From: an uncultured Pseudomonadales bacterium
GTDB lineage: Bacteria; Patescibacteriota; Microgenomatia; UBA1400; Chazhemtobacteraceae
Assembly: GCA_964618725.1 (NCBI GenBank)
Contig: CAZUBK010000004.1
Location: 79,485-143,484, forward strand
Direction: 5' to 3'
DNA: 64,000 bases
Every line of letters begins with the position of its first letter. Within the stretch, counting starts at the first letter, position 1. Made by a program: the position numbers and the translations under genes. Below, in pieces: positions 21,393 through 54,582 of the stretch. The notes below the pieces were generated by a model that worked only from the letters and a program-made list of their open reading frames with translations, did not search any database and was not told where the DNA came from.

Positions 21393-22220
21393 CTAAAGTA
21401 CTAGAATCAAATAAGCCAGCCCCAGTCCTATCGCCCCAACTCCTAGTGTCAATAATACTTGTACTACCACTGCCATTTGGATCCTCGCCCCCGCCAACGG
21501 ATTCCTCCCTATTGCCTCTACTCCTGCTTTGGCTACTCGACCAAAGTATATAAATCCAACTACAAACGACACAACCACTATCACCGCTGCCGCTAAGTAA
21601 CGTAATGCGGACAACGGATCCAAAAACGGAACACTCAAACCCTCTCTTAATGTCTCAAATAGATTCTCTCCGATACTCTGTAAATTCAAACTAGGATGCA
21701 CTTTTATCGACACCTCTATTTGCCCCACTTGGTTAGGATCACCACTCTCCCATCCTTCCAGTGCCGTCCCCAAGACAAATCCGTTCTTAACCGCCTTCAC
21801 TCCGATTCCCGGCGTTGTTGAGCTAGTAACTAGATCTCCCTGAACGATTGCTCCTCTGGAAGCATTCACCCGTACCACCGCCCTTCCAGAGGTAATGACT
21901 GAAAACGAATTAGGTATGTTGGTCGCTACAATTGCCGCCGCCGGGCTCGCTACGACTACTCCAAACATCTCCACCTGAAACTCTTGGTTACACAAAACAT
22001 ACTCGTCTCCCGCGTTACAAATGACACTACCAAGTGGCACTTCCCCCTCCGTAACAGTTACCGGTATTGCTACCCCCAAGTCAATTGACTGAGCCAGGAC
22101 TTGTCCAGAAGATCCCATCATCAATAAAAACATCAAAACCAAGAAAAAGAAATTCTTCATTACTTTCAATGTAACAAATTTCTCCAATTTAGAGATATCT
22201 AAAAAAACCCTTGTATTCAC
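21393..22220 (-). CDS. hypothetical secreted/membrane protein
   Basis: N-terminal signal/TM segment. The C-terminus has a two-helix hairpin ...VAKAGVEAIGRNPLAGARIQMAVVVQVLLTLGVGAIGLGLAYLILVL. Confidence 0.5.
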   Translation of the reverse strand: MNTRVFLDISKLEKFVTLKVMKNFFFLVLMFLLMMGSSGQVLAQSIDLGVAIPVTVTEGEVPLGSVICNAGDEYVLCNQEFQVEMFGVVVASPAAAIVATNIPNSFSVITSGRAVVRVNASRGAIVQGDLVTSSTTPGIGVKAVKNGFVLGTALEGWESGDPNQVGQIEVSIKVHPSLNLQSIGENLFETLREGLSVPFLDPLSALRYLAAAVIVVVSFVVGFIYFGRVAKAGVEAIGRNPLAGARIQMAVVVQVLLTLGVGAIGLGLAYLILVL

Positions 22221-24229
22221 TTCCTAAGAATGCCACAATCAACCCCATGTCCGCCCAACAACAAACCAAAGCCTTTGATACCCTTTCCTTAATCAGTCTT
22301 TTTGCCATCGTCTTCCTCCTACCTCTTATCTTCCTCCCCTCCTTTGTCAACTCGCATATTACCGGCAAGCTGACCCTTCTTGGTATCGGCCTTACCCTCA
22401 TTCTCGCTTCCAAAATCGCCAAGACCCTAATTAACAGAAGGCTTGAGATCACTTTAAGCCACTTTGACTTGCCTATTTTCTTTTTTGCCCTCATATACAT
22501 AGTAGTTACCTTCCTCCGCACTCCCAATAAGATGGAAGCTTTCTTCCTCCCCGGCACCACCAGCTTCGTCATCGCCGGCACCATCCTCTACTTCAGCCTC
22601 ACCCAGCTTTCGGCAAAGCTTAGACAGACCGTCCTTACCACCCTGATTCTCTCGGGAATCCTCGTCAACTTTATTTTCACCCTTTCCCATACCGGCGTCT
22701 TTGCCAAACTAAACGTCTTCCCTGCCTTTCTTAACACCAGTTTCACCACTTTCGACGGTGTTTTGGCCCAGACTATTTTCACCATTACCCTCCTCCTCAT
22801 TCTACTTAGCCAATTAGCCAGCAAACCCAAAAACCCAACCAAAGGTTTCTTCCTTGTTTCTCTAGTTCTTCTCACTATTGGCAGTTTCTTCTCCGTCAAC
22901 AGCCTTCTTCCGGGCAAAACACTCTCACCCCAACTTCTTGGCTTCAAGGACTCCTGGGTCATCATGGTCGACAGCATCAAAGAAAAGCCCTTCCTCGGCA
23001 GCGGCCCGGGCAACTTCGTCAGCGCCTTTGCCCGCTTCAAGCCCCTCGACATCAACAACACCGATCAATGGAACACCCTTCATGCCACCTCCCGCAATCT
23101 ATATTTCACCATTGCTACCGAAACCGGACTACTTGGAGTCCTCCTTATTATCATCTTCCTCCTCTACTGGATCAAAGTCTTAAGAACTACCTCAAACAAT
23201 CTCCCACAGGGATCTTCGATCTACTTAGCCTGTCTCTTCCTTCTCTTGGCTCTTGTCTTTTTCCCAACCTCCAGTAGTCTCCTTGTCATTCTCTTCCTTC
23301 TCACTGGACTAGCTTCACCAGCCAAAAAACACTTGAAACTAGAAAACAAAATCGTCCTCCTGGGTACCACTCTTCCGCTTATTATCGCTTTGGCAGCCTT
23401 CGTCTTCTTTGGCGGTTCAGCCCTTGCCGCTGAAAACCATTACAAAAATGCCCTAAGCAGCCCCAATGCCCAGTATGTCTTTGAAGAGCTAAGAAAGGCG
23501 ATTAAGGCAAGCCCCTATGTCGACCGCTACCACCTCACCTTCTCTCAAGTTAACATCAACCTAGCCGCCAATCTCTTCAAAAAAGGCCAGTTGAGCGAAG
23601 ACGAACAAAAATCCCTCAACCAATTGATCGACCAAGGCATCAACCAAGCCAAGATCTCAGTCAATTTGAATCCGCAAAGAGCCAGCAACTGGGAAATCCT
23701 AGCTAACATCTACCAATCCCTTACCCGCATTGCCAAGGGTGCCGACGAATTTGCCTACACCGCCTATCAGCAGGCCATCACCCTCCATCCCTACAACCCT
23801 ATCCCCCGTCTTTCCCTTGGAGGCCTCCTATATACCCAAGGTCGTTTCCAAGACGCTGTACGGGTCTTAGAAATGGCCGCCCTCACCAAACCAGACCACG
23901 CAAATATCCGTTACAACCTGAGCCTTAGCTACCGCGAAGCCAATCAAGTCGACCAAGCCATCGAACAACTAAACACTCTCCTCACTCTAATTGAGAAGGA
24001 CTCAAAAGACTACGAACTAGTTAAGGCCCTTCTTGATCAACTTGCGTCACGCAAAAAATCAGAAGCCCCCTCCGGTGAGGAGTTGACCGCTCCAGTAGCC
24101 CCTCCCAAACGACCCATCACTCCCCCTCTAGAACTTCCCGATACTTCCGCTCCACCAGAGAATCCTCTCCCCGAAGCGACACCCACTCCCACTTCGACAG
24201 AGAATCCTACCCCAACACCCTCCATATAA
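22211..24229 (+). CDS. O-antigen ligase (Wzy_C) family membrane protein with C-terminal TPR repeats
   Basis: Polytopic. ...FLGSGPGNFVSAFARFKPLDINNTDQWNTLHATSRNLYFTIATETGLLGVLL... matches the ligase loop. TPR-like repeats and a Pro-rich tail follow. Confidence 0.7.
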   Translation: MYSLPKNATINPMSAQQQTKAFDTLSLISLFAIVFLLPLIFLPSFVNSHITGKLTLLGIGLTLILASKIAKTLINRRLEITLSHFDLPIFFFALIYIVVTFLRTPNKMEAFFLPGTTSFVIAGTILYFSLTQLSAKLRQTVLTTLILSGILVNFIFTLSHTGVFAKLNVFPAFLNTSFTTFDGVLAQTIFTITLLLILLSQLASKPKNPTKGFFLVSLVLLTIGSFFSVNSLLPGKTLSPQLLGFKDSWVIMVDSIKEKPFLGSGPGNFVSAFARFKPLDINNTDQWNTLHATSRNLYFTIATETGLLGVLLIIIFLLYWIKVLRTTSNNLPQGSSIYLACLFLLLALVFFPTSSSLLVILFLLTGLASPAKKHLKLENKIVLLGTTLPLIIALAAFVFFGGSALAAENHYKNALSSPNAQYVFEELRKAIKASPYVDRYHLTFSQVNINLAANLFKKGQLSEDEQKSLNQLIDQGINQAKISVNLNPQRASNWEILANIYQSLTRIAKGADEFAYTAYQQAITLHPYNPIPRLSLGGLLYTQGRFQDAVRVLEMAALTKPDHANIRYNLSLSYREANQVDQAIEQLNTLLTLIEKDSKDYELVKALLDQLASRKKSEAPSGEELTAPVAPPKRPITPPLELPDTSAPPENPLPEATPTPTSTENPTPTPSI

Positions 24230-24353
24230 TTTCCAAAACCGAAGCCATACCCGAAACAACTGCAAATTTGTACATTCAGCCTCAAAACTGTACAACTTTC
24301 ACGCTTCTCTTTCCTAACTCCGCTTCTTTCTTCTACTTACAAATTTCGCATTT

Positions 24354-24497
24354 AAGTTCTAGATACCTGTAAACAAAAACATTACGCAGACAGAAAAAGC
24401 CGGTTTCGAAACGAAGTGAAGAATTTTTCTAGTCGAGTAAGAGACTGGCCGAGTCGCTGGACGAGGAACATGTCGTTTTTTGTGACAGGTATTTGGA
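24354..24497 (+). repeat. ~145-bp dispersed repeat, copy 1
   Basis: About 85% identical to 39584..39727. Both copies begin GTTCTAGAT and end ATATTTrGAAyA, which are imperfect terminal inverted repeats. Confidence 0.6.
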
Positions 24498-24703
24498 ATA
24501 TCAGAAGTGCGAAAGTTGCACTAGATATTTCACTTCCTCCATTCTTCCCTCCAGTGTTCGCGTCATCAATCCATTCCCACTTTTACCTGTTGACTTCACC
24601 CACAAAATCCTTCATAAATTAATACTAGATAAAGTTGTACATTTAGCCTCAAAAAATATCTAAATTTTATATACAACTTTTCTCCAAAGACAAAACTGCC
24701 CAA

Positions 24704-27700
24704 ATGTCCGCCCAAAAACATACCCAAACTAGCGAAAATCAAACTCTCACCCTTACTCAAGCGGCGCAAATCCTGGACGTCAACATGGCCACCGTCCGCC
24801 GCTGGACTAACAATGGCAAACTCCCTTCTTTCCGTACTCCCGGAGGCCATCGTCGCCTCCACCAGGCCGATGTCGAAAAAATCGCCCTCCAAAAACAGCG
24901 CCGCCAACTTCTCAAGCAACAAGCCCTGGCCGATGCCATCCAAATCCAACAACTCGCTCTTCCTAAAACCCCCCTCAAACCAATCTCAAGTCTGCTCACT
25001 GAACCCTCCCTGAAAGTCATCGACTCTGACCCCCTCAACATTCCGCAAGCCGAAGGTCCCCGTGGGATCCCGTTAGGGATAGACAACAAATCCAAGTCTT
25101 CCTTTCGTTCCTTTCTCACCCTCGCTTTGATCCTTGCTACTCTTCTTGTTTCCTTCAAGGGAGTCAAAGCCTTTAGAGACACCATTGCCTACGAAACCCT
25201 CTACAACACTCTCCCCTTCTTGTCCCGTTTTACGGGATCCCCTCTCTCTCCTCTTACTCAAAACAAAATCACAGACAAATTAAAGGGTTCCGTCCTCCAA
25301 GCCACCGATACTGTCGAGGAACTAATCTTTGAAGTCAATATCCCCACGAATATTGATAATGACCTCAATGTCAGTGGTGATCTCACCGTCGATGGAGACC
25401 TCATCACTAATGGCAATGTTGCTTTTGACAGTATCTCTGCCGATACCGCAGACTTTGGTTCTGCCGACATCACCACTCTTAGTATCGGTGGTACTACTCT
25501 TACCTCCACTGCTACGGAACTAAACTACCTCGATGGCCTGACTCTCGCCGCTGGAGGTATTGCCTACTCTACCTCTACCGGTCTTCAGATCTCCGCTGCC
25601 GGCACCAGTAGCCAGGTTCTGACCAGCAACGGTAGCGGTGCCCCCACATGGAAGAGCGTTTCCAGTATCCAATCTACCGACGCCTCAACGCTGGACAGTC
25701 TTGACTCCACCGCCTTCCTGCGTAGTAACGCCGATGATACTTACGACTCCGGTAACACCTTAACCGTCGCCGGTGCTCTCGCAGTTTCTGGTTCCCTGAC
25801 CTCCACCGGAGACGTCAGCATCTCTGACACCAATATTGCCCTCAATGGCGCCACCACCACCTTTACCACCACCGGAGACTTAACTCTTGCTGTCGGGGGG
25901 TCCGACATCCTCTCAACTTCTCGAATGACTTTGGGCTCTGCCACTGCCGGAACTGCCCAACTTCTGATCGACGGCAACGCCGATGTCATCCAACTTCAAA
26001 TCCAAGGACACTCTACCCAAACCGCAAGCACCTTCGTCATTGAACAGTCCGATGGTACGGATGTGCTTGCGGTAGGCAACACCGGGGTCCTGACGCTCAC
26101 CAACAGCGGCACCACCAACACCACCTTCAACCTCTCCAGTTCCGGAGACTTCATCATTCAGGACAACGGCACCGCCTTCATCACCTTTAACAGCAGTGGC
26201 CAGGTCGTGGGAAGCGATACCCTTCTTTTCAATCTCTCCGCTGCCACCCATAATTCCACCACTCCCGAAGGTATCATTCTCCCTCAAGCCACTTCCTTTA
26301 CCTCTCCCTCTTCCGGAGAAGGTTACATTGCCTGGGACTCTGATGACAACAAGTTGATGATGTATACAGGTAGCGCCTGGGTTGACGTCGCTGCTGCTGG
26401 AGGATCACTCTGGACTGACGGAGGAACGACCACCTACCTCACCGCTACCACCGACGATCTCGCCGTTGGCGGCACCGACTCGGAAAGCAACCTCTTCTTT
26501 GATGAGTCCGCCTCCGCCCTCTCTCTTAACCCCTATGGCACTTCTGCCGGTAATACTGGTGAATTAAGGTTTGAAGAGTTAGAAGCCAACGGTGACTCCT
26601 ACACTGGATTCAAAAGTCCCGATTCGCTAGCCGCCAATGTCGTCTACACTCTCCCTTCTGCCGACGCTACTACCAGTAACCAAGTCCTCGCCTCCTCTGC
26701 CGCCGGCGTTCTCTCTTGGATTGACGTCTCTGCTGGTGCCGGCACTCTCTGGACCGATGGAGGTACCACTACCTACGTTACCTCTACCACCGACGATATC
26801 GCTATGGGAGGAACTACCGCCGAATCCCCTTTCTGGATGGACGTCTCTGCTTCCCTTCTTAATCTCAACCCCTACGGCACTTCTACCGGCAATACCGGTG
26901 CTTTTGTCTCCCAAGAACTCGAAGCCAATGGCGACTCCTACACTGGTTTCAAAGCTCCAGACTCTTTAGCCGCTTCTGTCGTCTACGCTCTTCCCCTTGC
27001 CGATGCCTCCTCTGCCAACCAAGTCCTTTCGAGTAACGCCTCTGGTACCCTCGCCTGGATTGACGTCACTGGCGGTGCTGGTGCTCCCTGGACTACTTCC
27101 ACCACCAATACATATCTCACTACCACCACCAACGACGTCATCGTCGGTGCTTCCACCCCCGTCTCCTCTGCCAAACTTAGTGTCGATGGTGATGACGACC
27201 AGATTCAACTTGTCGTCCAAGGTAATGCCACTCAAACCGTCGCCACCCAACTCTTCCTCGTCGAGACCTCTGCCGGATCAGATCTTTTTTCCGTTGATGT
27301 CAACGGCGACTTAGTTCTCTCTGGCGAACTCGACATCAACGGTACCGGTACCCACGACATCGCAGGAACATTAAACCTCTCCGGGACAACCTTAACTGCC
27401 AGTGGCGACCTCACCATCACCCCCGTTGGTGGAGACGTCATCCTGGGATCCTCTGTGGCGCTTACCGCTTCCAAAATTAACAAAGTCATCGTCGTCGACG
27501 GCACCACCTATGCCCAGACGTGTGCCGGCATCAATGCCGCCATTGATGCGCTGGGAGCTAGTGGAGGAGAGATATACCTCCCCGAAGCTACTTACACCTG
27601 TACCGAAACGATAACGGTGGATTACAACAACACCACCATACGGGGCGCGGGGAAAGGGAGTAAAATTGTCGCGTCCGCTTGGGGTAGCTGGGGGACGCCG

Positions 27701-30700
27701 GGGGATGTGATAACGACTGGGACCACCGACTACAATAGTTTCCGTGATTTTCAGATTGACGGAACGCTTTTGACGGCACAAGCCTATGATCTTCTCGATC
27801 TCCCCAACGGTTCCAACTACATCGTGATTGACGGACTCTACCTAAAAAATAGTGATCGATACGGGATAAACATCAATCCCGGCGGAGCCTTCGTCATGAT
27901 CACCAACAGTATCATCGAAGGGTCAGATAGCTATGGCATTGTGGCTGATAACACCTCGGCGTATACCAATATTGCCAATAACATCATCCGCACAAACGAT
28001 TATGGTATCGTCATCGCGGGTGATTTCGTCGACGTAAGTAACAACATTATCACCGGCAACACCACCGCCGGTATTTCCGCAACCGGTTGGGGCGAGGATG
28101 CGACGATTACCGGCAACACCTTTTTTTCCAACGGGACGTATGGGGTATATGTCAGCGGTACAGGCTTTGATACCAATAACAATGTCACCATTTCCGGTAA
28201 TGAATTTAAAACGCATACCAACGGCGTTTATCTAAATAACACCAAGCAGGTAGCAGTGGTCGGCAATAACATTTTCCAATACTCCACCCAAGCCGGGCAG
28301 TATGGCGTGTACATAACCGGTGCTTCTGCTGATCCGGCCAACAGCAATCTGATTTCCAATAACGTCATAACGGGCTATACCGATGCCGGGGATATAGGTA
28401 TCTACATCGTCAACAGTTATGCCAACAATAACATCCTTTCTTACAATAGCTTTTCCACCAACGAAACAAACATCACGGATAATGGTGTTAACACACAGAT
28501 CAGCAATGCTGACTCCGGTAATCTTAGTATCGGCGGTGCCGACTCCACCCCAGACACCACCCTTGAACTCTTCCGTGCTTCAGGTTCCGACTCCACTTTC
28601 AGTATGACCGACGGTGACGTCGCCCATGGAGTTACTACGCTTGCCAATACTGACGCCTTCTTCCACGCTGGCCCCATCTCCTCCACCGTTGGTGGTACTA
28701 GACTAACTTCTCTTGCCGATGCTGATGGCCAAGCCCTGGAACTAAGAGCAGTCCAAACTGCTCCTACTGATACCACCCCCGCCATTAAACTCGTCGGTGC
28801 CAAAGCCTCTGGAACTGGAGTAGTTGACCTTGATGCTGCAGAGACTGTCTTTCAGGTGGCAAATAACGACGACGCGGCAGCACTTACTGTCTTAGGATCC
28901 GGGTCAGTCGGGATCGGTGATACCACTCCAGACGCCGTTTTCGACGTCGATTCCACTTCAGCTACCGCCGTCATTTTTGGCGACGGCACCAGTAACTACT
29001 TTACCTTTGACGGTTCCACCGATGTTGGCGACACTTTGTTTACCTTCACCGGAGCCAGTTCGGGAATAACTTCCGGAAAAATACTTTCCGTAGTCGCCGA
29101 TACCATCACAACTGGCAATGCGTTAGATTTCTCGGTTGATGGCATCTCCACTGGAAATGGCATGTATTTGGAATCTACTTCAACCGCCCTCTCCTCAGGC
29201 AATATTGCCTCGTATTACTGGAATCCTGGGAGTGCCACTACCGCAACCGGCGACATTCTGCGGCTAGATGTAGGGAGCAATGGGACCATCGGAAATATTC
29301 TAAACGTGATGAACGGTGGTTCTTCAGTCTTTTCTGTATCACAATCCCAAATTACTAGTGCATTACCCCATCAGTTTACCGCCGCAGGAGATGTATCCAT
29401 CGCCTATGACTTGCAATTTACTAACCAGACTGCTTCCTACATAAAGTCGTATGCCCCGTTGTATATCGAAGCAGGAGAGACGTTTGAAAACAACGACTTA
29501 ACCTTGAGAACCTATGGAACTGGTGATGTGATTTTGGATTTCACCACTTCAACGGGAACCGGAAAGTTACAGATTGCCGCGCCTGATCCATCCATCGTTT
29601 TCGATACCGAAACAGCCACCGATACTGACTTTTGGATGGGGGTAGTTGAAGACGCGGGCGCAGATGATGACGACACCTTCCAGATTGGTGATGGCACCAC
29701 TCCTGGAACCAATCCCTGGTTAGTCTTAGATACCAGTGGTAACGTAGGTATTGGTCCAGACACCACCCCAGATTACAAGTTCGAGATCAATGTGGCCGCC
29801 AGCAGCGACTCAACCTTCGCCTTAGTGGACGGTGACGTCGCCCACGGTGTCACCACCCTCGTCAACACCGATGCCTTCTTCCACGCTGGCCCCATCTCCT
29901 CCACTGTTGGTGGTACTAGACTTACTTCTCTTGCTGACGCTGACGGTCAAGCATTTGAGATCAGTGCTGTTCAAACCGCTCCCACCGATACCACTCCTGC
30001 TATTAAACTAGTTGGTGCCAAAGCCTCTGGTACTGGAGTCGTTGACCTTGATGCCGCCGAAACTGTCTTTCAAGTGGCAAACAATAATGACACGGCAGGG
30101 ATTACCATGCTTGGTGATAGTTCTGTCGGTATTGGAACCGTCACACCCAGCTCCTTTGCTAATAAACTCGCAGTTATATACTCAGTTAGTGGCATCACCG
30201 GTGGTACCAGCGGCACTTTCCAAAATACTTTTACTCCCACGGCGAATACCGCCGGTAGCCCTATCGCTCTCAAAGCCGCCACCACAGTCAGCGGTGGATC
30301 AACTAACTACTCCTCGGCCAATACTGCTATACGGGCACAAGCAAGTAATGTGAATAACACAGGTTCATTAACCACCACCTATGGCGTATATTCCCAACAC
30401 GGAGCCCTTTCCGGAGGAACAACCGGATCTTCTGCCGCCTCTTATGGCGTTTACTCTGATACCGCCTGGAGCTCATCAGCTACATTGGCATCTGCCTATA
30501 ACTATGCCGCAGTTATTTCGGCCAACTCTGGCACCTTCACCAATACTTATGGATTCTATGCTGGTGACCTGACTTCTGGCACTCAAAGTAACACTCCTTT
30601 CTCTTTCTATGCTTCAGATACGGGTACATTCAATTATTTCGGTGGTCGTACTGGCATCGGCGACACCTCACCTCTTGGTATGCTCGAAGTCAGTAGCGCC

Positions 30701-32086
30701 TCTGTTGATACTTACGGCAAAGCCCTTGCCATCTTCAACCACGATGAGACCGAGGACTTGCTAACAGCCTCTGCCTCCAGTGTCACCAAGTTTGCTGTCA
30801 GTAGTACCGGTGCCCTGTACGTTGGTGACAACACCACCCTTGGTACCTCTACTGCCCTTTGTTGGGAATCGGTGACGCGTAATGGTGCCACCGTCTACCA
30901 GGTAGGTGACTGTACCGGTACCCCCGGAGACTATGCCGAAATGTATCCGGTGGAGAATGATATCACTTATGGAGACGTCGTGACGCTAGGAACTGAGAAT
31001 GTCGTCCAAACAGACGGACAGATTGTGAAGAGATTAGTTAAGAGTAGTCGAGAGTATGACAGCAGTGTCGTCGGTATTGTCAGCAACAACTACCACGACT
31101 TTACCTTAGCAGGGAGCGCCTCTCTTAACTCCTCCGACAACCCCATGCCAGTCGCTCTCAGTGGACGTGTTCCCGTTAAAGTCTCCACCTCCTCGGCTGA
31201 AATCCAAGCCGGTGATTTTTTGACTACTTCTACCGAGGCAGGTAAGGCGATGAAGGCAACAGTCAGTGGTTATGTCATTGGTAAGGCCCTGGAAGACTGG
31301 AGTCCTGGCCAAACCACGGTGATGGTATTTGTCAACAACACCTATTACTCAGGGATTGCTCTCAATGAGCAAGGACAAACAGGAGTAACTGCCAATTCAG
31401 ATACAGAAGGTACTATACCTTCCGATGAGCAAGTCCTTGCTAAAGATCTTCAAGACAATCAGTATGCTTCACAGTCCGCTGCACTCAAACAAGAGATTGA
31501 CACCTTAAGTTCCAAGGTAACTGAGTTGACCACAAACCTCGACTCCCTCACCTCTCTTGTCCTCAGTGCCTCCGACTCCGCACTCGTAAATCCTGAATCA
31601 TATATCTTAAATCTCAACGATGAAACTGCCACAGTTTCGTCGTTGATGGTCACAGACAAACTTCTCACTCAGGATCTTGGCATCACCGGCTCCCTCACCA
31701 GTGGCCTTCTCACAATCAACGGTCTCAACGGCGACATCCATACCCTCGCCGGCCCCTTACGTCTTCAATCCTCTCCCCTTGCTTCTTTAACAGAAGGTAT
31801 TGAAATCCTAAATGGCTACCTTACCATCGATACTAAAGGTAACCTAAACATCAACCAAGGACATATTAAAGGCAATGATACCTTCCGTGGCTCCATTACC
31901 CTACCCACAGGTAAAATCAAAGTCACTGTTCCTCAAGAGTGGGAGACCGTACCTACCTCCATTACCTTGACCCCAAGTTATCTCACCGTCACCGCCATAA
32001 CTAATATCACCACTGACGGCTTCACTATCGAAGTCCTGACCCCCTCTCTTAAAACAGAGAAGATATACTGGACCGCCATTTGGTAG
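24704..32086 (+). CDS. giant 2460-aa protein: N-terminal excisionase-type HTH, one TM helix, then a repetitive beta-helix surface domain
   Basis: N-terminus LTLTQAAQILDVNMATVRRWTNNGKLPSFRTPGGHRRL. TM helix FLTLALILATLLVSF. PbH1-like repeats NNIITGNTTAGIS...ISGNEF. Three ~113-aa tandem repeats and a ~340-bp internal duplication. C-terminal coiled-coil. Confidence 0.8.
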   Translation: MSAQKHTQTSENQTLTLTQAAQILDVNMATVRRWTNNGKLPSFRTPGGHRRLHQADVEKIALQKQRRQLLKQQALADAIQIQQLALPKTPLKPISSLLTEPSLKVIDSDPLNIPQAEGPRGIPLGIDNKSKSSFRSFLTLALILATLLVSFKGVKAFRDTIAYETLYNTLPFLSRFTGSPLSPLTQNKITDKLKGSVLQATDTVEELIFEVNIPTNIDNDLNVSGDLTVDGDLITNGNVAFDSISADTADFGSADITTLSIGGTTLTSTATELNYLDGLTLAAGGIAYSTSTGLQISAAGTSSQVLTSNGSGAPTWKSVSSIQSTDASTLDSLDSTAFLRSNADDTYDSGNTLTVAGALAVSGSLTSTGDVSISDTNIALNGATTTFTTTGDLTLAVGGSDILSTSRMTLGSATAGTAQLLIDGNADVIQLQIQGHSTQTASTFVIEQSDGTDVLAVGNTGVLTLTNSGTTNTTFNLSSSGDFIIQDNGTAFITFNSSGQVVGSDTLLFNLSAATHNSTTPEGIILPQATSFTSPSSGEGYIAWDSDDNKLMMYTGSAWVDVAAAGGSLWTDGGTTTYLTATTDDLAVGGTDSESNLFFDESASALSLNPYGTSAGNTGELRFEELEANGDSYTGFKSPDSLAANVVYTLPSADATTSNQVLASSAAGVLSWIDVSAGAGTLWTDGGTTTYVTSTTDDIAMGGTTAESPFWMDVSASLLNLNPYGTSTGNTGAFVSQELEANGDSYTGFKAPDSLAASVVYALPLADASSANQVLSSNASGTLAWIDVTGGAGAPWTTSTTNTYLTTTTNDVIVGASTPVSSAKLSVDGDDDQIQLVVQGNATQTVATQLFLVETSAGSDLFSVDVNGDLVLSGELDINGTGTHDIAGTLNLSGTTLTASGDLTITPVGGDVILGSSVALTASKINKVIVVDGTTYAQTCAGINAAIDALGASGGEIYLPEATYTCTETITVDYNNTTIRGAGKGSKIVASAWGSWGTPGDVITTGTTDYNSFRDFQIDGTLLTAQAYDLLDLPNGSNYIVIDGLYLKNSDRYGININPGGAFVMITNSIIEGSDSYGIVADNTSAYTNIANNIIRTNDYGIVIAGDFVDVSNNIITGNTTAGISATGWGEDATITGNTFFSNGTYGVYVSGTGFDTNNNVTISGNEFKTHTNGVYLNNTKQVAVVGNNIFQYSTQAGQYGVYITGASADPANSNLISNNVITGYTDAGDIGIYIVNSYANNNILSYNSFSTNETNITDNGVNTQISNADSGNLSIGGADSTPDTTLELFRASGSDSTFSMTDGDVAHGVTTLANTDAFFHAGPISSTVGGTRLTSLADADGQALELRAVQTAPTDTTPAIKLVGAKASGTGVVDLDAAETVFQVANNDDAAALTVLGSGSVGIGDTTPDAVFDVDSTSATAVIFGDGTSNYFTFDGSTDVGDTLFTFTGASSGITSGKILSVVADTITTGNALDFSVDGISTGNGMYLESTSTALSSGNIASYYWNPGSATTATGDILRLDVGSNGTIGNILNVMNGGSSVFSVSQSQITSALPHQFTAAGDVSIAYDLQFTNQTASYIKSYAPLYIEAGETFENNDLTLRTYGTGDVILDFTTSTGTGKLQIAAPDPSIVFDTETATDTDFWMGVVEDAGADDDDTFQIGDGTTPGTNPWLVLDTSGNVGIGPDTTPDYKFEINVAASSDSTFALVDGDVAHGVTTLVNTDAFFHAGPISSTVGGTRLTSLADADGQAFEISAVQTAPTDTTPAIKLVGAKASGTGVVDLDAAETVFQVANNNDTAGITMLGDSSVGIGTVTPSSFANKLAVIYSVSGITGGTSGTFQNTFTPTANTAGSPIALKAATTVSGGSTNYSSANTAIRAQASNVNNTGSLTTTYGVYSQHGALSGGTTGSSAASYGVYSDTAWSSSATLASAYNYAAVISANSGTFTNTYGFYAGDLTSGTQSNTPFSFYASDTGTFNYFGGRTGIGDTSPLGMLEVSSASVDTYGKALAIFNHDETEDLLTASASSVTKFAVSSTGALYVGDNTTLGTSTALCWESVTRNGATVYQVGDCTGTPGDYAEMYPVENDITYGDVVTLGTENVVQTDGQIVKRLVKSSREYDSSVVGIVSNNYHDFTLAGSASLNSSDNPMPVALSGRVPVKVSTSSAEIQAGDFLTTSTEAGKAMKATVSGYVIGKALEDWSPGQTTVMVFVNNTYYSGIALNEQGQTGVTANSDTEGTIPSDEQVLAKDLQDNQYASQSAALKQEIDTLSSKVTELTTNLDSLTSLVLSASDSALVNPESYILNLNDETATVSSLMVTDKLLTQDLGITGSLTSGLLTINGLNGDIHTLAGPLRLQSSPLASLTEGIEILNGYLTIDTKGNLNINQGHIKGNDTFRGSITLPTGKIKVTVPQEWETVPTSITLTPSYLTVTAITNITTDGFTIEVLTPSLKTEKIYWTAIW

Positions 32087-32128
32087 CATCGCTACCAAAT
32101 ACGATTTACGATTTAAGAATTAAGATTT

Positions 32129-32509
32129 ATGAACACAAAAATCAAAGACTTCACCGATCTGAAATCCTGGCAAGAAGCACATAAGCTAGTTCTTGACATA
32201 TACAAGGCGACCAGGTCTTTTCCCAAAGAAGAAACTTACTCACTAACCGACCAGATCCGCCGCGCAGCCGTATCAATTAGCAGTAATATCGCTGAAGGAT
32301 TCGGCAGACAAACATACAAAGAAAAAGTCCAGTTTTACTATCTAGCCCAGGGGTCACTTGTCGAGGTCAAAAATCAACTGTTTATTGCCAAAGATGTTGG
32401 ATATCTAAACCCACAATCATTTGCCACGTTAATGAGACAGGCCAATATTGCTCACCAGCTATTGCAGGGCTTAATCACCAAATCAAAATCTTTTATTCGT
32501 AAATCATAA
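32129..32509 (+). CDS. four-helix-bundle protein (23S rRNA IVS protein / Avd-like family)
   Basis: ...SWQEAHKLVLDIYKATRSFPKEETYSLTDQIRRAAVSISSNIAEGFGRQ...YYLAQGSLVEVKNQL... is characteristic of the family. Confidence 0.8.
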   Translation: MNTKIKDFTDLKSWQEAHKLVLDIYKATRSFPKEETYSLTDQIRRAAVSISSNIAEGFGRQTYKEKVQFYYLAQGSLVEVKNQLFIAKDVGYLNPQSFATLMRQANIAHQLLQGLITKSKSFIRKS

Positions 32510-32514
32510 ATCTG

Positions 32515-35500
32515 ATGTCTAAAATCTTAAATCATAAATCTTATCTCATAAATCGTAGATCTCGGTTGCTGTTAAAACTTGGTCTTCTCTTTCTCTCTAT
32601 TACCCTCCCCATCGCCCTCCTCATCGCCCAAAACCCCAAAACCGTGGGAGCCGCCTGGTGGAACGGTGACTGGAAATACAGAAAAGTCATCCCCATCAGC
32701 TCTCATACCGCTGCCGAAACCAACGTCTACATCGCCATTACGGCTTATGACGCCTCCGACACAACCCGCTACCAGACCGACTGCGGCGACGTTCGCTTTA
32801 CCAAATACAGTGGCGAACTTTTGCCCTACACCGTCACTAGCTGCGGCGCTTCTACCACCTTTAACGTCCTCTTTGACACCTTCCCCGCTGGCGCCCAGGA
32901 TATCTATCTCTATTACGGCAACGGCAACGCCGCCAACGGTTTTCAAACCACCGCCTTTTCTACCCAAGCATCCGCCTATGTCATCGGCACTACCGGTTCT
33001 GAAGCCACCACCCCCGGTCCCGTTGCCTACTGGAAATTTGACGAAGGCCAGGGGCAGATCATAAATGATCAAACCACCCATAATAATGACGGTACCCTGG
33101 GCGCCGATTCTTCTTCCGCCTCCGACGACCCCACCTGGGTAGAAGCAGGCCGCTGTGTGAGCGGCAAGTGTTTGAGTTTTGACGGCAGCAATGACTTCGT
33201 AAATTATACTGGCTTGCCAACCCTTTTTTCCGATTGGGGAAGCACGTCGTTCTCCATGAGCACATGGTTTAAGACGATTGATAACGCCACTGATCGAGGT
33301 GTCTTTGGTTCATACGCTGCTAATGACATTGTTCAAATGAGAATAAATCCAAACTCAGATAATAAATTATCAGTCTACATGAGAGGATCCGCTAGTTGTG
33401 GTTGGGTCTCAAGTAATTCTGCAGTAGCAAATAACCAGTGGTACTACGCTACGATGGTGTACGATAGAACAAACTTGTATCTTTATGTTAATGGTCAGCT
33501 GCAAAATTCAACTGCATGCAACATAACGAGCGTTAATTTAAGTACATTTAGTGTGGGAAAGGTCACAGGAGCAGCTTCGTCGTTTACAGGCTTCATCGAC
33601 GAACCCAAAATTTATCCCTACGCCCGCACGGCAGCGCAGGTAAAACTGGATTACGATCAGGGCGCCCAGGCGGTGCTGGGCAGCACCAACACCGTCGGCG
33701 GCTCACCGGGATTTTTAAGCAATGGCTTGGTGGGGTACTGGAAACTCGACGAATCTTCCAGTACCGCCGCGGATTCTTCAGGCAATAGCAACAGTGGCAC
33801 TTGGAACGGCACTGCCGCTGCAGCTGCAGGTAAATTTGGTAATGGCATCTCCCTAGACGGAGACAGTGACTACGTCAGCATCGGAGACACAGAATTAATC
33901 AGCACAGCCTTCACCACCTCCGTCTGGTTCAAACCTGACAACGTCACCCAAACCGGCCCTATTATCAGCAAATACACTACTACAGGTGACAATAGGTCGT
34001 ACATCATCAGACTCGACTCTAATGATTATTATTTTGCCCTTTCCAGTGACGGCACCAGTGCTAGCGGCAAATTTGACCAGCTCACCGTCAGCAACGTAGT
34101 TAGCGCCAACGTCTGGCAGTTGGCTACCGTCACCTACGACGGCACCACCGTCAAAATGTTCCTCAATGGCAGTGAGGTTGGATCTTTTGCTCATACTGGC
34201 GGAGTTTATGCCAGCGGAACTGCTTCACTATTATTCGGTAACCAATCTACTAACTATTTTGACGGCACGCTCGACGAAACCCGCATCTACAATCGCGCCC
34301 TGTCCGCCGCCGAAGTCCGCCAGCTCTACTCCTGGGCGCCCGGGCCAATTGGCCGTTGGAACCTTGATGAGGGGACAGGCACCTCTGCTGCAGATGATAG
34401 TGGAAATAGCAATACTGGGACGATTACCGATCCAACCTGGATAAATGGAAAATTTGGCAAAGCCCTTTCTTTCAATGGAACAAGTGCAGAGGTAAACATC
34501 GGAGATACAGATAACACCTCTGGTATGCTGACCATTTCTGCATGGATCAAACCAAACACCGTCAGCGGTGGGTATGATGCCATCTATGGAGAAAGCGGCT
34601 TTGGATTTTACAACTTCAATGGCGTTCTAACCTTGTGGACATCAGCGTTTACTGGAGGCACGGGTACGCTTACTGTTAATCAATGGCAACACGTAGCCGC
34701 AACATTTGACTCCAGCACCGATTCCATTTATTTCTACATTAATGGGACTCGCGTGTACAGTAAAACAAACTGGACAGGCACGGTGCCCAACGATGCAAAC
34801 ACAGAATTTATTGGTTCCTATAACGGTAGTCAGGAATGGTTTTCAGGTTTAATCGACGACATGCGCATCTACAACTACGCCCGCACGGCCGGGCAAATAA
34901 TGGAAGACATGAATGCCGGGCATCCAGTGGGCGGCTCGCCAGAAGGCTCCCAGGTTATCTACTACAAATTTGATGAACAACAAGGCAGTACCGCCAATGA
35001 CACCGTTGGCAACCAAAACGGCACCGTTACCAGTGCCAGTTGGCTGACTAAAGCAAGCTGCAAAATTAACGGCTGTTTAAGCTTTGACGCCGCCGGCGAA
35101 GTCGTAACTATCGCCACCGCCAACGACAGTGTGGTTGATTTTAACAGTAGCGAAACCTTCTCCGGCTCCGCCTGGGTCTATGTCACTACTATGCCCGGCT
35201 CTGGGGAACAAGATGCCATCATTGCCAAATGGGACGATACCGGAAATCTTGCCGATTACAAACTCTACGTCGAAAACGACGACGCCGATACCACCGGCAA
35301 CTTTGAGGTCCAGATCTATGATGAATCCGCCAGCCAAGCCATCACCGCCAGCCAGGCCATTGACCAGGTAGCCGTCAACACCTGGTATCACGTTTCTTTC
35401 ACCTTTAACGGCGGCACAGCTGGCGCCGCCGGCGACCTCAAACTCTACGTTGGTGGCAAATATACCGCTCAAAACGCGGCCAATACTTCCTTCTTGGGGT

Positions 35501-37071
35501 TAGAGGACAAGGCCAGCGACTTTACTATTGGTGAATATGATACCGGTGATGTAGTTTCCACCAATACCGCCTTCACTGGCTATATCGACGACGTCAAAAT
35601 GTATAGCTCCGCCCTCACCGCTGACCAAATCGCCGTCGACATGAATGCCAATGCGGCGCTCAATTTTGGCACCACCGCCAACGCCGAAGCCGCGGATTTA
35701 AGTGACGGCGCCGGCAACGCACCAGTGGCCTACTGGAATATGGACGAAAAAACGGGCCAATCTACTAACGACACTTCTGGCAACAGCAATACCGGCACTT
35801 TAGGCGCTACCTCCTCCTCCGCCTCCGACGACCCCACCTGGGCTACTGGTAAATACGGAGCGGGGTTAAGTTTTGATGGGAGTAATGATTATGTGAATAT
35901 TACAACGCCTTCCATATACAATCAAACTCAATATACTATTTCAGCTTGGATAAAATTGACCAACACCACTGGTAGTCAAACGATTTATTCAGAAGGTCGT
36001 AATGCTAGTTTAGGTTTTCTCTGGTTTTATATAAATGCCGGAAAAATAGAACTTCGTGATAATGATGGGACTAATTATAACCAGTACGATGGTAGCACTA
36101 CTCTCTCCACAGGTGTCTGGCACCATGTTTTGGTAACTAGAAATGGCAATACCGCAGCAAATATTTATCTGAACGGTAAACTTGAAACGTTAAGCGTAAA
36201 TTCAACTTTGGGTAGCGGAACTCTGCCCACGTTAACACTGGCTTCTGTTGGTAGCTTGTTACGTAGTACTAATGCCTCATTTTTTAACGGTTCTATAGAC
36301 GACGTCCGCATCTACAACTACGCCCGCACGGCGGCGCAGGTGGCCTACGATTACAATCGCGGCGCGCCGGTGGGCTGGTGGAAGCTGGACGAGTGCCAGG
36401 GGACGGTGGCTAATGACGCGAGTGGGAATGGCAACCACGGCACCATCACCATCGGCGCTTCGGGTGAAGACACTGTCGGCACCTGCCAAACCTCCTCCAC
36501 TGCCTGGGGCAGCGGGGCAACAGGAAAATATGGGGCGAGTTTGAGCTTTGACGGAACGGATGATTATGTGGATATCTCAACAACGGGGACCAACTATGCA
36601 CCCACGGACAAACCATTTTCTGTCTCTTCGTGGTTTAAGTCAGCTGCTTCTCCTACAGTATATGGCAGAATAGTAAACTTAAAATCCAATTCTTCTCCGT
36701 TTCATCTTATATATTCAACAGACACTAGTTATAATCTTGGATTTGGGGGTGATACCTGGGGAAAGACATGGAAAGTTCCTCTTCCCTCTTCCAACACATG
36801 GCACCATGTTGCAATAGCATATAATGGCAACGGGGTAACAACCGCCAGCAACTTCTTGGTCACAGTCGATGGATCAAGTCAAACTCTAACTAATGCTGGT
36901 AGTATTGGAAACGTATCAAACACTTCATTTATAGGAAAATATTCCGGCGCTGCGGCCAATGAGCATTTTGCTGGCCAGATCGACGACGTGCGCATCTACA
37001 ACTACGCCCTCTCTGCCGCCCAGGTGCGCAAACTCTTCAACGAAGGCGCCAGCGTGCGGTATGGCAATTAA
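32515..37071 (+). CDS. DUF2341 domain plus multiple LamG-like (concanavalin A-like lectin) repeat protein, 1518 aa
   Basis: N-terminal TM helix, WWNGDWKYRKVIPIS (DUF2341), then about 8 LamG_3-like units with the recurring ...WKLDE...G.....G...FDG..DYV...DE.RIYN.ALSAAEV pattern. Confidence 0.8.
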   Translation: MSKILNHKSYLINRRSRLLLKLGLLFLSITLPIALLIAQNPKTVGAAWWNGDWKYRKVIPISSHTAAETNVYIAITAYDASDTTRYQTDCGDVRFTKYSGELLPYTVTSCGASTTFNVLFDTFPAGAQDIYLYYGNGNAANGFQTTAFSTQASAYVIGTTGSEATTPGPVAYWKFDEGQGQIINDQTTHNNDGTLGADSSSASDDPTWVEAGRCVSGKCLSFDGSNDFVNYTGLPTLFSDWGSTSFSMSTWFKTIDNATDRGVFGSYAANDIVQMRINPNSDNKLSVYMRGSASCGWVSSNSAVANNQWYYATMVYDRTNLYLYVNGQLQNSTACNITSVNLSTFSVGKVTGAASSFTGFIDEPKIYPYARTAAQVKLDYDQGAQAVLGSTNTVGGSPGFLSNGLVGYWKLDESSSTAADSSGNSNSGTWNGTAAAAAGKFGNGISLDGDSDYVSIGDTELISTAFTTSVWFKPDNVTQTGPIISKYTTTGDNRSYIIRLDSNDYYFALSSDGTSASGKFDQLTVSNVVSANVWQLATVTYDGTTVKMFLNGSEVGSFAHTGGVYASGTASLLFGNQSTNYFDGTLDETRIYNRALSAAEVRQLYSWAPGPIGRWNLDEGTGTSAADDSGNSNTGTITDPTWINGKFGKALSFNGTSAEVNIGDTDNTSGMLTISAWIKPNTVSGGYDAIYGESGFGFYNFNGVLTLWTSAFTGGTGTLTVNQWQHVAATFDSSTDSIYFYINGTRVYSKTNWTGTVPNDANTEFIGSYNGSQEWFSGLIDDMRIYNYARTAGQIMEDMNAGHPVGGSPEGSQVIYYKFDEQQGSTANDTVGNQNGTVTSASWLTKASCKINGCLSFDAAGEVVTIATANDSVVDFNSSETFSGSAWVYVTTMPGSGEQDAIIAKWDDTGNLADYKLYVENDDADTTGNFEVQIYDESASQAITASQAIDQVAVNTWYHVSFTFNGGTAGAAGDLKLYVGGKYTAQNAANTSFLGLEDKASDFTIGEYDTGDVVSTNTAFTGYIDDVKMYSSALTADQIAVDMNANAALNFGTTANAEAADLSDGAGNAPVAYWNMDEKTGQSTNDTSGNSNTGTLGATSSSASDDPTWATGKYGAGLSFDGSNDYVNITTPSIYNQTQYTISAWIKLTNTTGSQTIYSEGRNASLGFLWFYINAGKIELRDNDGTNYNQYDGSTTLSTGVWHHVLVTRNGNTAANIYLNGKLETLSVNSTLGSGTLPTLTLASVGSLLRSTNASFFNGSIDDVRIYNYARTAAQVAYDYNRGAPVGWWKLDECQGTVANDASGNGNHGTITIGASGEDTVGTCQTSSTAWGSGATGKYGASLSFDGTDDYVDISTTGTNYAPTDKPFSVSSWFKSAASPTVYGRIVNLKSNSSPFHLIYSTDTSYNLGFGGDTWGKTWKVPLPSSNTWHHVAIAYNGNGVTTASNFLVTVDGSSQTLTNAGSIGNVSNTSFIGKYSGAAANEHFAGQIDDVRIYNYALSAAQVRKLFNEGASVRYGN

Positions 37072-38012: not shown

Positions 38013-39551
38013 TCAAAATACTCTCATTCGATACTGCAACGCTTCAGCAATATGTTCCGATTTAACAGATTCCGATGAGTTCAAATCGGCGATAGTCCGT
38101 GCTACCTTCAGAACTCTAAAATATGACCTTGCTGACAGATCATACTTCTCTACTGCCAATCTCATTAGCCTGGTGCCTTCTTCGTCAAGCACGCAGTACC
38201 TAGTGACCAATTTGTTTCTCATCTGTGAGTTTGTGTAGATTCCTGTCAAATCTTGGAATCTGTTTTCTTGAATCTTCCTGGCATTTCTAACTTTGTCTCT
38301 AATCTGGCTACTATTCTCTCTACCTTCTACATTCAACCTTCTATCGTCCGCCAACTTTTCTACCTCCACTGCCGGCACATGAACATGTAAATCAATTCGG
38401 TCCAAAATTGGCCCTGAAATTCTCCGTTTATATCTGTCAATCTCCCTAATTGTACAAACACATTCTTTCTTGGGATGATTCAAATACCCACACGGACATG
38501 GGTTCACCGCTGCTACTAACATGAAGTTCGCTGGATACTCAACCCTCCCTGCTGCCCGACTTACCACAACCTTCCCATCTTCCATTGGTTGACGAAGCGA
38601 CTCCATCACTGTCCGAGGAAACTCTGCCATCTCATCCAAAAACATCACTCCTAAGTGCGCCAGACTCACCTCTCCCGGTAAGGGTTTGCTGCCCCCTCCA
38701 ATTAATCCCGCCAAAGAGGTCGAGTGGTGTGGCGACCTGAAAGGTCTCACCCTTATTATTGCTTCACCTGCCCCCAACAGTCCCGTTGCCGAATAAATCC
38801 TTGTCACCTCCAAAGCTTCTTCGGAAGATAATGGGGGCAAAATTCCGGGCAGTGCTCTTGCCAGCATCGTTTTTCCCGATCCTGGGGGTCCACTCATCAA
38901 AATATTGTGTCCACCTGCCGCCGCGATCATACACGCTCTTTTGGCCTGTTCTTGACCCAGAATATCAGCAAAATCAAACTCAATCTCGTGATTACTAACA
39001 AGCCGCTCAATCGGAATTGTTTTTAGCACCTCAATTAACTTTTCCTCATTCAAATGTCTTACTAGGTCCGTTAAGCTAGCAACCGGTAGTACTGTCACTC
39101 CTTCAACCACCGCTGCCTCCTGAGCAGATTCCTTCGGGACGAAAACATCTCCAAAACTCTCTTTCTGTGCCAAAATTCCTACCAATAACACCCCTCGGAC
39201 GTGACGTAGATGTCCATCCAGTGACAACTCGCCATAAAAAATTGCTTTCTCATCCACCCGCTTGACTTGCTCCGATGCCAGCAAAATCCCCACCGCAATC
39301 GGCAAATCATAACAACTACCATCCTTGGCTAAATCTGCTGGCGCCAAATTCACCGTAATCTTTTTCTGTGGGAAAGAAAAATCCGAGTTGGTAATCGCCG
39401 TTCTGACCCTCTCCCTGGCTTCCTCAACCGCTTTACTCGGAAGTCCAACAATATTAAATCCCGGAAATCCTTGAGTCGCAACATCGACCTCAACTTCGAC
39501 AAGAACACTGTTAAGTCCGATATGTGCCACCGAGTTTACCTTAACAATCAT
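38013..39551 (-). CDS. YifB/ComM family Mg-chelatase-like AAA+ ATPase
   Basis: N-terminus MIVKVNSVAHIGLNSVLVEVEVD; Walker A GPPGSGKT; C-terminal helical domain. Confidence 0.9.
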   Translation of the reverse strand: MIVKVNSVAHIGLNSVLVEVEVDVATQGFPGFNIVGLPSKAVEEARERVRTAITNSDFSFPQKKITVNLAPADLAKDGSCYDLPIAVGILLASEQVKRVDEKAIFYGELSLDGHLRHVRGVLLVGILAQKESFGDVFVPKESAQEAAVVEGVTVLPVASLTDLVRHLNEEKLIEVLKTIPIERLVSNHEIEFDFADILGQEQAKRACMIAAAGGHNILMSGPPGSGKTMLARALPGILPPLSSEEALEVTRIYSATGLLGAGEAIIRVRPFRSPHHSTSLAGLIGGGSKPLPGEVSLAHLGVMFLDEMAEFPRTVMESLRQPMEDGKVVVSRAAGRVEYPANFMLVAAVNPCPCGYLNHPKKECVCTIREIDRYKRRISGPILDRIDLHVHVPAVEVEKLADDRRLNVEGRENSSQIRDKVRNARKIQENRFQDLTGIYTNSQMRNKLVTRYCVLDEEGTRLMRLAVEKYDLSARSYFRVLKVARTIADLNSSESVKSEHIAEALQYRMRVF

Positions 39552-39583
39552 GGATTGATCTTACTACGACTTTCGCGTATGGG

Positions 39584-39727
39584 TTCTAGATGTTTACAAA
39601 CAAAAACATTACGCAGATTAAGAAAAGCCGGTTCCTGAGTCAAACGAAGGATTTTTCTAATCGAGTTAGAGGCTGGCCGAGTCGCTGGACGAAGAACATG
39701 CCGTTTTTTGTAGTAAATATTTAGAAC
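39584..39727 (+). repeat. ~145-bp dispersed repeat, copy 2
   Basis: Aligns base-for-base with 24354..24497, including the shared core GGCTGGCCGAGTCGCTGGACGA...CGTTTTTTGT. Confidence 0.6.
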
Positions 39728-39739
39728 ACTGAAAAAAAC

Positions 39740-40548
39740 TTAAGTCACGTAAAACTTTCCGTCTCTTTCTGTCACTTCCCCTCTTAGTTGCAACATCGAC
39801 AACTCCACGCTTACCTCTCCGACTGATTTCTTCAATTTCATCGCCATCTCATCCATAGTTAGTGCCTCAATAGACAGTAGCTTGTAGAGCGTAGAGCGTG
39901 ATCCACCGTTTTTTCTACCCTCTACCTTCAACCTTCTAAGTTCTAGTGCTTCTAAAATGTCATTCGCGCTTGTCAGCATCTGCGCCTGCCCTTCTTTGAT
40001 TAAATTGTTTGTCCCAACACAAACCTTGGAGGTAATTGGTCCCGGCACCGCAAACAACTTCTTGCCAAATTTGAGTGCCAAATCCGCCGTAATCAAACTT
40101 CCGGATTTCTCCGCCGCCTCAATCACAATTGTTACCTTGCTCATCCTCGCTACAATCCTATTTCGCTGCGGAAACATCCATACTTGGCAGCCCCTTCATA
40201 CTCACTTATAATCAAGCCCTTTTTCTGTATTTCTGAATACAATTTTTGATCTTCAAAAGGGACCTTCCAATCAATCCCCCAGCCCAAAACAGCCACCGTC
40301 TTCCCACCACAGGAAAGCGCTATCTTATGCGCCTCTTGATCCACCCCATACATAAACCCCGAAACAATCGTTATTCCGACGTCACAAAGAGACGGAATAA
40401 TTTTTTCCAAAACCGTCTTTCCATAACTAGTCATCTTTCTACTCCCCACTACTGCCACACAATTTTCTAAATCCGCTTCCTCCAAAACCCCCTTGCGGTA
40501 AAGCTTCTTGACCTCAGGCTTAATATCCTCGAATAACCCTCCATTCAT
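39740..40548 (-). pseudogene. dprA: DprA/Smf DNA-processing protein split into two ORFs by a frameshift near 40150-40180
   Basis: The upstream ORF 40150..40548 carries the DprA Rossmann N-part. The downstream ORF 39740..40177 begins MFPQRNRIVARMSKV, the conserved DprA FPxRNRIIAGLS motif. The two frames overlap by 28 nt. Confidence 0.6.
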
Positions 40549-51943: not shown

Positions 51944-52042
51944 TTAAGTTTCTCCTTTTTAAGATATAAATGTTCGAATACGCAAATTATACTTCATAGT
52001 AGTGATAAGTCAATCTCATAACCAGACGATAGTAAGATTATT

Positions 52043-52142
52043 ATCGGCGCAGTTATAAGAGGAAGCGCAGGACATCATTTCGATAATACATATTATCGAA
52101 GGTAAGGATGAGCAAGTCGTAAATCCTTTAGGGCTCTTATAA
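52043..52142 (+). repeat. copy C of the ~90-nt structured repeat family (closing stem TTATAAGAG/CTCTTATAA)
   Basis: Shares TTATCGGCGCAG...TTATAAGAGGAAGCGCAG...GAGCAAG with copy A. It has an internal hairpin CGATAAT-ACAT-ATTATCG. Confidence 0.5.
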
Positions 52143-52147
52143 GGTAG

Positions 52148-54471: not shown

Positions 54472-54508
54472 CCTACCACCAATCCCCCTCTTCTTCTATT
54501 CTTTCTTG

Positions 54509-54582
54509 TGGACCCGATCGGGATCGAACCGATTACCTCCACTATGCCATAGTGGCGCTCTAGCCAAGTGAGCTACGGGCCC
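54509..54582 (-). tRNA. tRNA-Ala (anticodon GGC)
   Basis: Minus strand GGGCCCG-TA-GCTC-ACTTGGCTA-GAGC...CCACT-ATGGCAT-AGTGG...ATCGG-TTCGATC-CCGAT-CGGGTCC-A. The G3·U70 alanine identity pair is present. Confidence 0.8.

Follow-up and report, generated by a model that had tools for sequence, protein, structure and literature searches.

What is the sequence of about 145 nt that stands twice between genes, in one and the same orientation, in this stretch of DNA? A reading made from the sequence alone had described it as 'MITE-like or structured RNA', with two loci aligning over their full length at about 85% identity. Within the window (the whole stretch analysed, 64,000 nt) the full-length match holds, with a blastn E of 3e-33 between copy 1 and copy 2, while the measured identity is lower, at 80-82% (118 identical positions in 147 aligned columns). 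In a common register the repeat spans 24356-24499 (144 nt) and 39583-39727 (145 nt), both on the plus strand; the copies proposed earlier are real, and their start at GTTCTAGAT had been set off by 2 nt in copy 1 and by 1 nt in copy 2. Local alignment carries the homology about 22 nt further in the 5' direction, to 24334 and 39562, respectively. Substitutions between the copies run in both directions and are mostly transitions (26 of 29, made up of 16 G<->A and 10 C<->T, with 3 transversions). A covariance model built from both copies scores 175.5 bits on copy 1 and 177.8 bits on copy 2, and no further copy was found in the 64-kb window with this model run with its filters off, with a 20-mer search allowing three mismatches or with a repeat finder.

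Both copies are intergenic and in the plus orientation, as had been noted, and their neighbours differ in strand, those of copy 1 being on the plus strand and those of copy 2 on the minus strand:

22211-24229, plus strand: TPR/Wzy-like gene, upstream neighbour of copy 1
24264-24299, no strand assigned: palindromic unit AAATTTGTACA-TTCAGCCTCAAAAC-TGTACAACTTT, context, possibly outside the element
24704-32086, plus strand: 2460-aa gene with an HTH_17 N-terminus, downstream neighbour of copy 1
38013-39551, minus strand: comM, neighbour of copy 2
39740-40548, minus strand: dprA, neighbour of copy 2

Copy 1 stands 127 nt past the stop of the TPR gene and 205 nt ahead of the start of the 2460-aa gene, and copy 2 takes up the 188 nt that separate dprA and comM, antisense to both genes. 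The best named relatives of ComM are from Gottesman-, Woese- and Collierbacteria and a 'Patescibacteria group bacterium'. The dprA gene itself is read as two overlapping ORFs, with a frameshift near 40150-40185, just ahead of the FPQRNRIVA motif, which marks a pseudogene, unless the assembly is wrong there. The region 24704-37071 is taken up by two giant genes with long internal repeats, one encoding 2460 aa with an HTH_17/MerR-like N-terminus and the other 1518 aa with six Laminin_G_3 domains; no homologue of the first 600 aa of the 2460-aa protein was found at E <= 1e-10 among 5.8 billion proteins.

On the plus strand, each copy is predicted to fold into a rod that consists of helix P1, a 2-nt junction, helix P2, an internal loop, helix P3 and an apical hairpin:

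24356-24499, plus strand: copy 1, core rod, 144 nt, MFE -44.8 kcal/mol
24356-24370 with 24485-24499, plus strand: copy 1, P1, 15 bp, formed by the element ends
24373-24380 with 24475-24483, plus strand: copy 1, P2, 8 bp
24399-24407 with 24441-24449, plus strand: copy 1, P3, 9 bp
24408-24440, plus strand: copy 1, apical hairpin
24340-24353 with 24505-24518, plus strand: copy 1, outer helix P0, inverted repeat I4, 86% complementary
39583-39727, plus strand: copy 2, core rod, 145 nt, MFE -37.3 kcal/mol
39583-39597 with 39713-39727, plus strand: copy 2, P1, 15 bp
39600-39607 with 39703-39711, plus strand: copy 2, P2, 8 bp
39627-39635 with 39669-39677, plus strand: copy 2, P3, 9 bp
24334-24355 (copy 1) and 39562-39582 (copy 2), plus strand: 5' leader, TACTTACAAATTTCGCATTTAA in copy 1, found as an extension of the local alignment
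24382-24389 (copy 1) and 39609-39616 (copy 2), plus strand: 5' loop motif UUACGCAG, identical in both copies
24450-24464 (copy 1) and 39678-39692 (copy 2), plus strand: 3' loop motif CGAGUCGCUGGACGA(G), in a loop with 23 of 25 positions identical

The terminal inverted repeats described before correspond to the 15 pairs of P1, followed by the 8-bp helix P2, ACAAAAAC/GUUUUU(U)GU. In P3, GCCGGUUUC pairs with GAGACUGGC over 9 bp, and the apical hairpin beyond it is variable between the copies. The internal loop is asymmetric (5' side 19 nt, 3' side 25 nt), and RNAalifold suggests pairing of ACGCA in the 5' loop with UG(Y)CGU adjoining P2 as a further possibility. The shared core that had been given as GGTTyCGAAACGAAG is exact in copy 1, whereas copy 2 has GGTTCCTGAGTCAAACGAAG. 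When P0 is included, copy 1 becomes a rod of about 180 nt (-60.1 kcal/mol, z = -5.9); in copy 2 only five pairs of P0 are left and the extended fold has a z of -1.45.

The way in which the two copies differ shows selection for this pairing. Across both copies, the 32 modelled pairs are standard in 63 of 64 cells. P1 has taken 11 substitutions with 15 of 15 pairs intact, by way of four double changes and three changes to or from G·U, none of them breaking a pair; the difference between ACCTGT/ACAGGT and GTTTAC/GTAAAT, noted before as retaining pairing, is compensatory. When 11 substitutions were placed at random, all 15 P1 pairs were spared in 6, 25 or 165 of 400,000 trials, depending on the setting of the transition bias (chance <= 4e-4). 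However, template switching can produce a cluster of compensatory changes at a single stroke, without selection, and the clustered change in inner P1 could be one such event and not serial compensation. Conservation between the copies is uneven, being 95% in P2, 92% in the 3' loop, 89% in P3 and 89% in outer P1, and lower in the 5' loop (79%), the apical part (70%) and inner P1 (25%, though fully paired). Such a pattern would be expected for an RNA with a functional loop.

The fold is also specific to one strand. Each copy contains five G·U pairs, in place of which the opposite strand would have A·C mismatches, and the z of the fold is -3.8 on the plus strand versus -1.6 on the minus strand for copy 1, and -3.6 versus -1.1 for copy 2. 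The base composition is to be read against a strong strand bias: the overall GC skew of the window (1-64000) is -0.285, the cumulative skew declines monotonically, and the GC3 skew on the plus strand is -0.45 to -0.69 for genes in either orientation. The same bias has been described for Microgenomates of the order UBA1400, with 29.8% C and 15.0% G on one strand (PMC7143001). Three related contigs (L119, L208 and L209) are much less skewed (0.04-0.16). Inside the element, G and C number 37 and 23 in copy 1 (skew +0.23) and 33 and 24 in copy 2 (+0.16), the intergenic flanks of copy 1 have G-C skews of -0.58 and -0.47, and both copies rank within the top 0.2-0.7% of 145-nt windows for G-richness. 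In the 3' trailer, GAAGTGCG of copy 1 is opposed to AAAAAAAC in copy 2, where the pairing partner is gone and the G's have been lost, which is the expectation for neutral decay under the mutational bias of this genome. Because there are five G·U pairs per copy, and more G than C on a strongly C-rich strand, pairing and composition point to a plus-strand function under selection. A foreign island or inverted segment was considered for the 15 kb between the copies and rejected, the GC3 skew there (-0.50, -0.61) being like that of the rest of the window; the total skew of this segment is weaker because its first codon positions are G-rich.

Taken together, these observations lead us to a reading to which we give about an even chance, namely that the plus strand of the element encodes a small, structured non-coding RNA, with two paralogues and a 6S-like shape. 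Between the two identities offered by the sequence-only reading, structured RNA has thereby gained support and the MITE has gained little. With similarly balanced confidence, the copies may be regarded as paralogous RNA genes, or as one gene and its decaying duplicate. We infer that the element is transcribed. The plus-strand RNA would fold into a rod in which the closing helix of at least 23 bp (P1 and P2, plus P0 in copy 1) forms the outer support, and the 9-bp helix with its variable apical hairpin the inner support, of a large, asymmetric, purine-rich internal loop that bears UUACGCAG and CGAGUCGCUGGACGAG and would be held open by these helices. This conserved loop would be the functional surface, presumably a platform for binding a protein. 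Several points count against an RNA gene. No sigma-70-like promoter was called beside either copy, the 5' leaders included, and no terminator-like site was called at either copy; only two sequences and one outside sequence type (see below) stand behind the reading, and absence from related syntenic contigs would be odd for a housekeeping RNA.

6S RNA (SsrS) is a regulator that binds RNA polymerase, and Bacillus has two 6S paralogues, 6S-1 and 6S-2. The likeness of our element, known from its sequence and predicted fold, to 6S RNA is one of shape: a rod closed by a long stem of its paired ends, then a large central bubble with unequal sides, then a terminal stem-loop, with conservation in and beside the bubble while the helices drift, and two paralogues in one genome. 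The element differs from 6S RNA in its length of 144-145 nt (with P0, copy 1 reaches about 180 nt), which equals that of the shortest 6S RNAs or falls below it, and in its absence from the related contigs examined. Furthermore, neither locus matches a 6S, 6S-Flavo or related Rfam model at E <= 10, which counts against a 6S-like identity. A decoy role like that of 6S RNA is put forward as our preferred specific guess, made by analogy.

Comparison with Rfam 15, which had been proposed as a check on the repeat, returned no family for the element: at gathering thresholds the whole window contains four tRNAs only, and at E <= 10 both loci and the outside contig L120 gave noise only (4-18 bits, compared with thresholds of 38-100). 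Two divergent tRNA-Ala genes (GGC and CGC, 54508-55085) carry a 31-nt inverted repeat, 97% complementary (54573-54603 with 54993-55023), that extends over their 5' ends and upstream DNA. The element has no blastn match in phage and plasmid collections, and searches of viral contigs with four patterns returned nothing, or only chance matches in high-GC or coding DNA. The 20-mer CTGGCCGAGTCGCTGGACGA has only chance matches in 185,579 genomes, all in high-GC coding DNA and none reaching into the next 8 bases; being G+C-rich, it matches such DNA by chance and is a poor gauge of distribution.

A scan of metagenomes with the pattern TTACGCAGA-N45-75-CGAGTCGCTGGAC returned one contig, L120, and the same sequence type, of 127 nt, was recovered in full from two others, L121 and L211; together with the two window copies it brings the known examples of the element to three. 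Both loop motifs, UUACGCAG and CGAGUCGCUGGACGAG, are present in this type, as imposed by the search pattern that found it, and lie 58 nt apart, compared with 60-61 nt in the window copies. Three more bases past the second motif are identical, and a GCG in the equivalent place could form pairs with CGC in the first motif. The closing helix, of 18 bp, is unrelated in sequence (AAGAAAAGCGU.UUUG.GAC/GUC.CAAA.ACGCUUUUCUU), as is the apical hairpin (UUCGGUGC/GCACCGAA), and the fold is rod-shaped with a z of -3.0. In L211 the locus is non-coding and adjoins an SPW membrane-protein gene and, on the opposite strand, ligA. The two-copy covariance model gives this type 11-17 bits, which is not significant, and since the search pattern itself required the motifs, the case for homology rests on motif spacing, architecture and location. 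The probability that a chance match to the pattern would be bracketed by a perfect 10-bp helix was estimated at <1%. Judged from these features of sequence, the type is probably a relative of the window element, which suggests conservation beyond the source genome through one other sequence type. It is doubtful that these sequences are the founding members of an undescribed family of rod-shaped regulatory RNAs in Patescibacteria (UBA1400 and beyond), defined by UUACGCAG and CGAGUCGCUGGACGAG and acting as a 6S-like or other protein decoy in organisms not yet reported to have one.

The alternative that survives best is a non-autonomous palindromic mobile element of the MITE, REPIN, ERIC or Correia type, moved by an enzyme encoded elsewhere in the genome. 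The element would have spread as DNA or single-stranded DNA; one candidate for the enzyme is a RAYT-like Y1 (HUH) transposase, which recognises DNA hairpins, and the hairpin would be retained since the enzyme needs it. The gene content of relatives bears on this alternative. In six related contigs with comM, whose ComM is 71-74% identical to that of the window, the element was not found in about 65 kb of syntenic DNA; both of its copies occupy rearranged spots. A RAYT-like Y1_Tnp gene of 207-222 aa adjoins comM in five of the six, and the window lacks this gene. The gene order in L119, L208 and L209 is dprA, Y1_Tnp (207-210 aa), comM and UPF0102, and copy 2 sits in the exact place of the Y1_Tnp gene. 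The genes and the REP-like palindromes of these contigs are located as follows:

L119:9367-9999: RAYT-like Y1_Tnp gene
L208:9338-9967: RAYT-like Y1_Tnp gene
L209:7461-8084: RAYT-like Y1_Tnp gene
L214:1954-2622: RAYT-like Y1_Tnp gene
L215:1659-2327: RAYT-like Y1_Tnp gene
L214:1191-1221, 1528-1558, 1926-1956 and 2656-2686: REP-like palindromes, four copies in 4.8 kb
L215:1605-1633 and 2326-2356: REP-like palindromes

The best NCBIfam match of Y1_Tnp is the REP-associated tyrosine transposase, at 42 bits, which does not reach the cut-off of 80 bits. The palindromes are perfect (TAGCTTCAAAAGACG-T-CGTCTTTTGAAGCTA and TAGCCTCGCAAGGC-GAG-GCCTTGCGAGGC), fill intergenic spacers in L214 and L215 and flank the Y1 genes; these two contigs have identical ComM, yet the Y1 gene is placed differently. 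In the three contigs with the order dprA-Y1-comM-UPF0102, the genes form an operon with spacers of 1-70 nt, and an HUH single-strand DNA enzyme within a competence and DNA-processing operon is unusual.

Copy 1 has a palindromic context of its own. The unit at 24264-24299 is duplicated at 24631-24680, just upstream of the 2460-aa HTH_17 gene, and the two units (36-50 nt, AAAKTTGTACA...TRTACAACTTT) bracket the copy; exact half-sites number four in the window, all within these two units. The loop of the unit, TTYAGCCTCAAAA, is similar to the left half of the REP-like palindrome in L214. The unit may serve as an operator, or may mark where an insertion carried copy 1 in. It is because of the Y1 gene at the copy 2 locus of relatives, the REP-like palindromes and this bracketing unit that we still count a mobile, hairpin-based origin as possible, though on the unlikely side.

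The element also resembles the mobile classes in its build. Like REPIN/REP-RAYT, ERIC, Correia and RUP elements, it is a long imperfect intergenic hairpin in the range of 100-150 nt with compensatory changes, and relatives have RAYT-like genes and REP palindromes at the copy 2 locus; like MITEs, it is small, intergenic and non-coding, with terminal inverted repeats (15+8 bp). However, no target-site duplication of at least 4 bp was found at either copy under five boundary definitions with shifts of up to 3 nt, and neither TA nor any other duplication is present. Only two copies, diverged to 80% identity, occur in 64 kb; the window contains no Y1_Tnp homologue or other transposase, and a hairpin scan of it found no REP-like or other repeated palindrome family. 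The arms, GTTCTAGATACCTGTAAACAAAAAC, are not self-complementary, unlike those of REPs, and the inner third of what would be the terminal inverted repeat of a MITE is wholly diverged yet paired. The shared orientation, the strand-specific G·U pairs and the G-richness would be unexpected for elements of these kinds, as would internal loops that are better conserved than the inner terminal repeat. Finally, the sequence type in L211 keeps the loops and not the termini, the reverse of what recognition by a transposase predicts. The element ends were also compared with sequence ahead of the RAYT-like gene in L214 (GTTCTAAAT GTTCTAGTAT); blastn gave no significant match, and a likeness between them is regarded as unproven and was set aside.

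It is improbable that the element is a cis-acting RNA hairpin in neighbouring transcripts and not a free-standing RNA. In this case copy 1 might, for example, be cleaved by RNase III, act from the 3' UTR of the TPR gene as a stabiliser or terminator, or belong to the 5' UTR of the 2460-aa gene, and copy 2 might be an antisense element over the dprA-comM junction. The position of copy 1 between two plus-strand genes and the failure to detect a promoter for the element itself agree with such a role, and a long perfect rod is a typical substrate of RNase III. However, copy 2 is antisense to both of its neighbours, so that the copies share no transcript context, yet the plus-strand fold is kept in both, and the locus in L211 lies in still another context. 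A scan called no intrinsic terminator at either copy, and that identity was rejected for both hairpins: the rods end in GGAAUAUCAG or GAACACUGAA with no U-tract after them, and the organism uses classic intrinsic terminators elsewhere, for example after rplL.

We consider it highly improbable that the repeat is a functionless relic of a segmental duplication, a quasi-palindrome whose hairpin has been renewed by template switching and not by selection: the compensatory changes are clustered (five of the six inner P1 positions are changed on both arms), as a single template-switch event would leave them, there are just two copies, and the adjacent dprA is frameshifted, which suggests local decay, but the composition of the element is far from the mutational equilibrium of its immediate flanks, P1 and P3 contain three more wobble changes at scattered positions, conservation in the loops is 79-92% versus 25% identity in inner P1, and an independent sequence type has the same motifs and shape.

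Other element classes were rejected on simple grounds. A conserved small ORF does not fit, as copy 2 has 45 codons and copy 1 is out of frame without an ATG. The differences are not adenine-specific, go in both directions and separate two intergenic copies, unlike those of a DGR TR/VR pair. Integron attC sites have R'' RYYYAAC and R' GTTRRRY boxes at their ends; the ends here are GTTCTAG... and ...TTAGAAC or ...TTGGAAT, and neither strand fits both boxes. A retron msr-msd would be followed by a reverse transcriptase, and what lies downstream is the 2460-aa HTH_17 gene and the antisense dprA, respectively.

One more G-rich island lies between genes on the C-rich strand of the window, at 52020-52150 (plus strand), with a fold z of -2.9 and no Rfam match; its nested hairpins pair UUAUAAGAG with CUCUUAUAA and UCGAUAAU with AUUAUCGA, and it may be another unannotated RNA. 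Next to it, on the minus strand at 51941-52020, the Rfam freshwater-2 motif scores 24.7 bits, short of its threshold of 49.9 bits; this match stops where the gene at 51344-51943 has its ribosome-binding site and start codon.

Where the G/C strand bias of a genome is extreme and runs along the whole chromosome, a functional RNA on the C-rich strand shows as a G-rich island, and unselected parts of a repeat visibly decay by loss of G. Were the element mobile, it would be tied to the RAYT/REP-like systems that lie beside comM in relatives. A search of full-text literature found nothing relevant on 6S RNA or structured non-coding RNA in bacteria of the candidate phyla radiation, whose regulatory RNAs appear little studied, and the element, which we prefer to read as a structured RNA, is a reasonable candidate for a new RNA motif rather than a surprise. 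If this reading is true, a rod-shaped RNA that is conserved and binds a protein through its loop would offer a handle on gene regulation in these unculturable bacteria.
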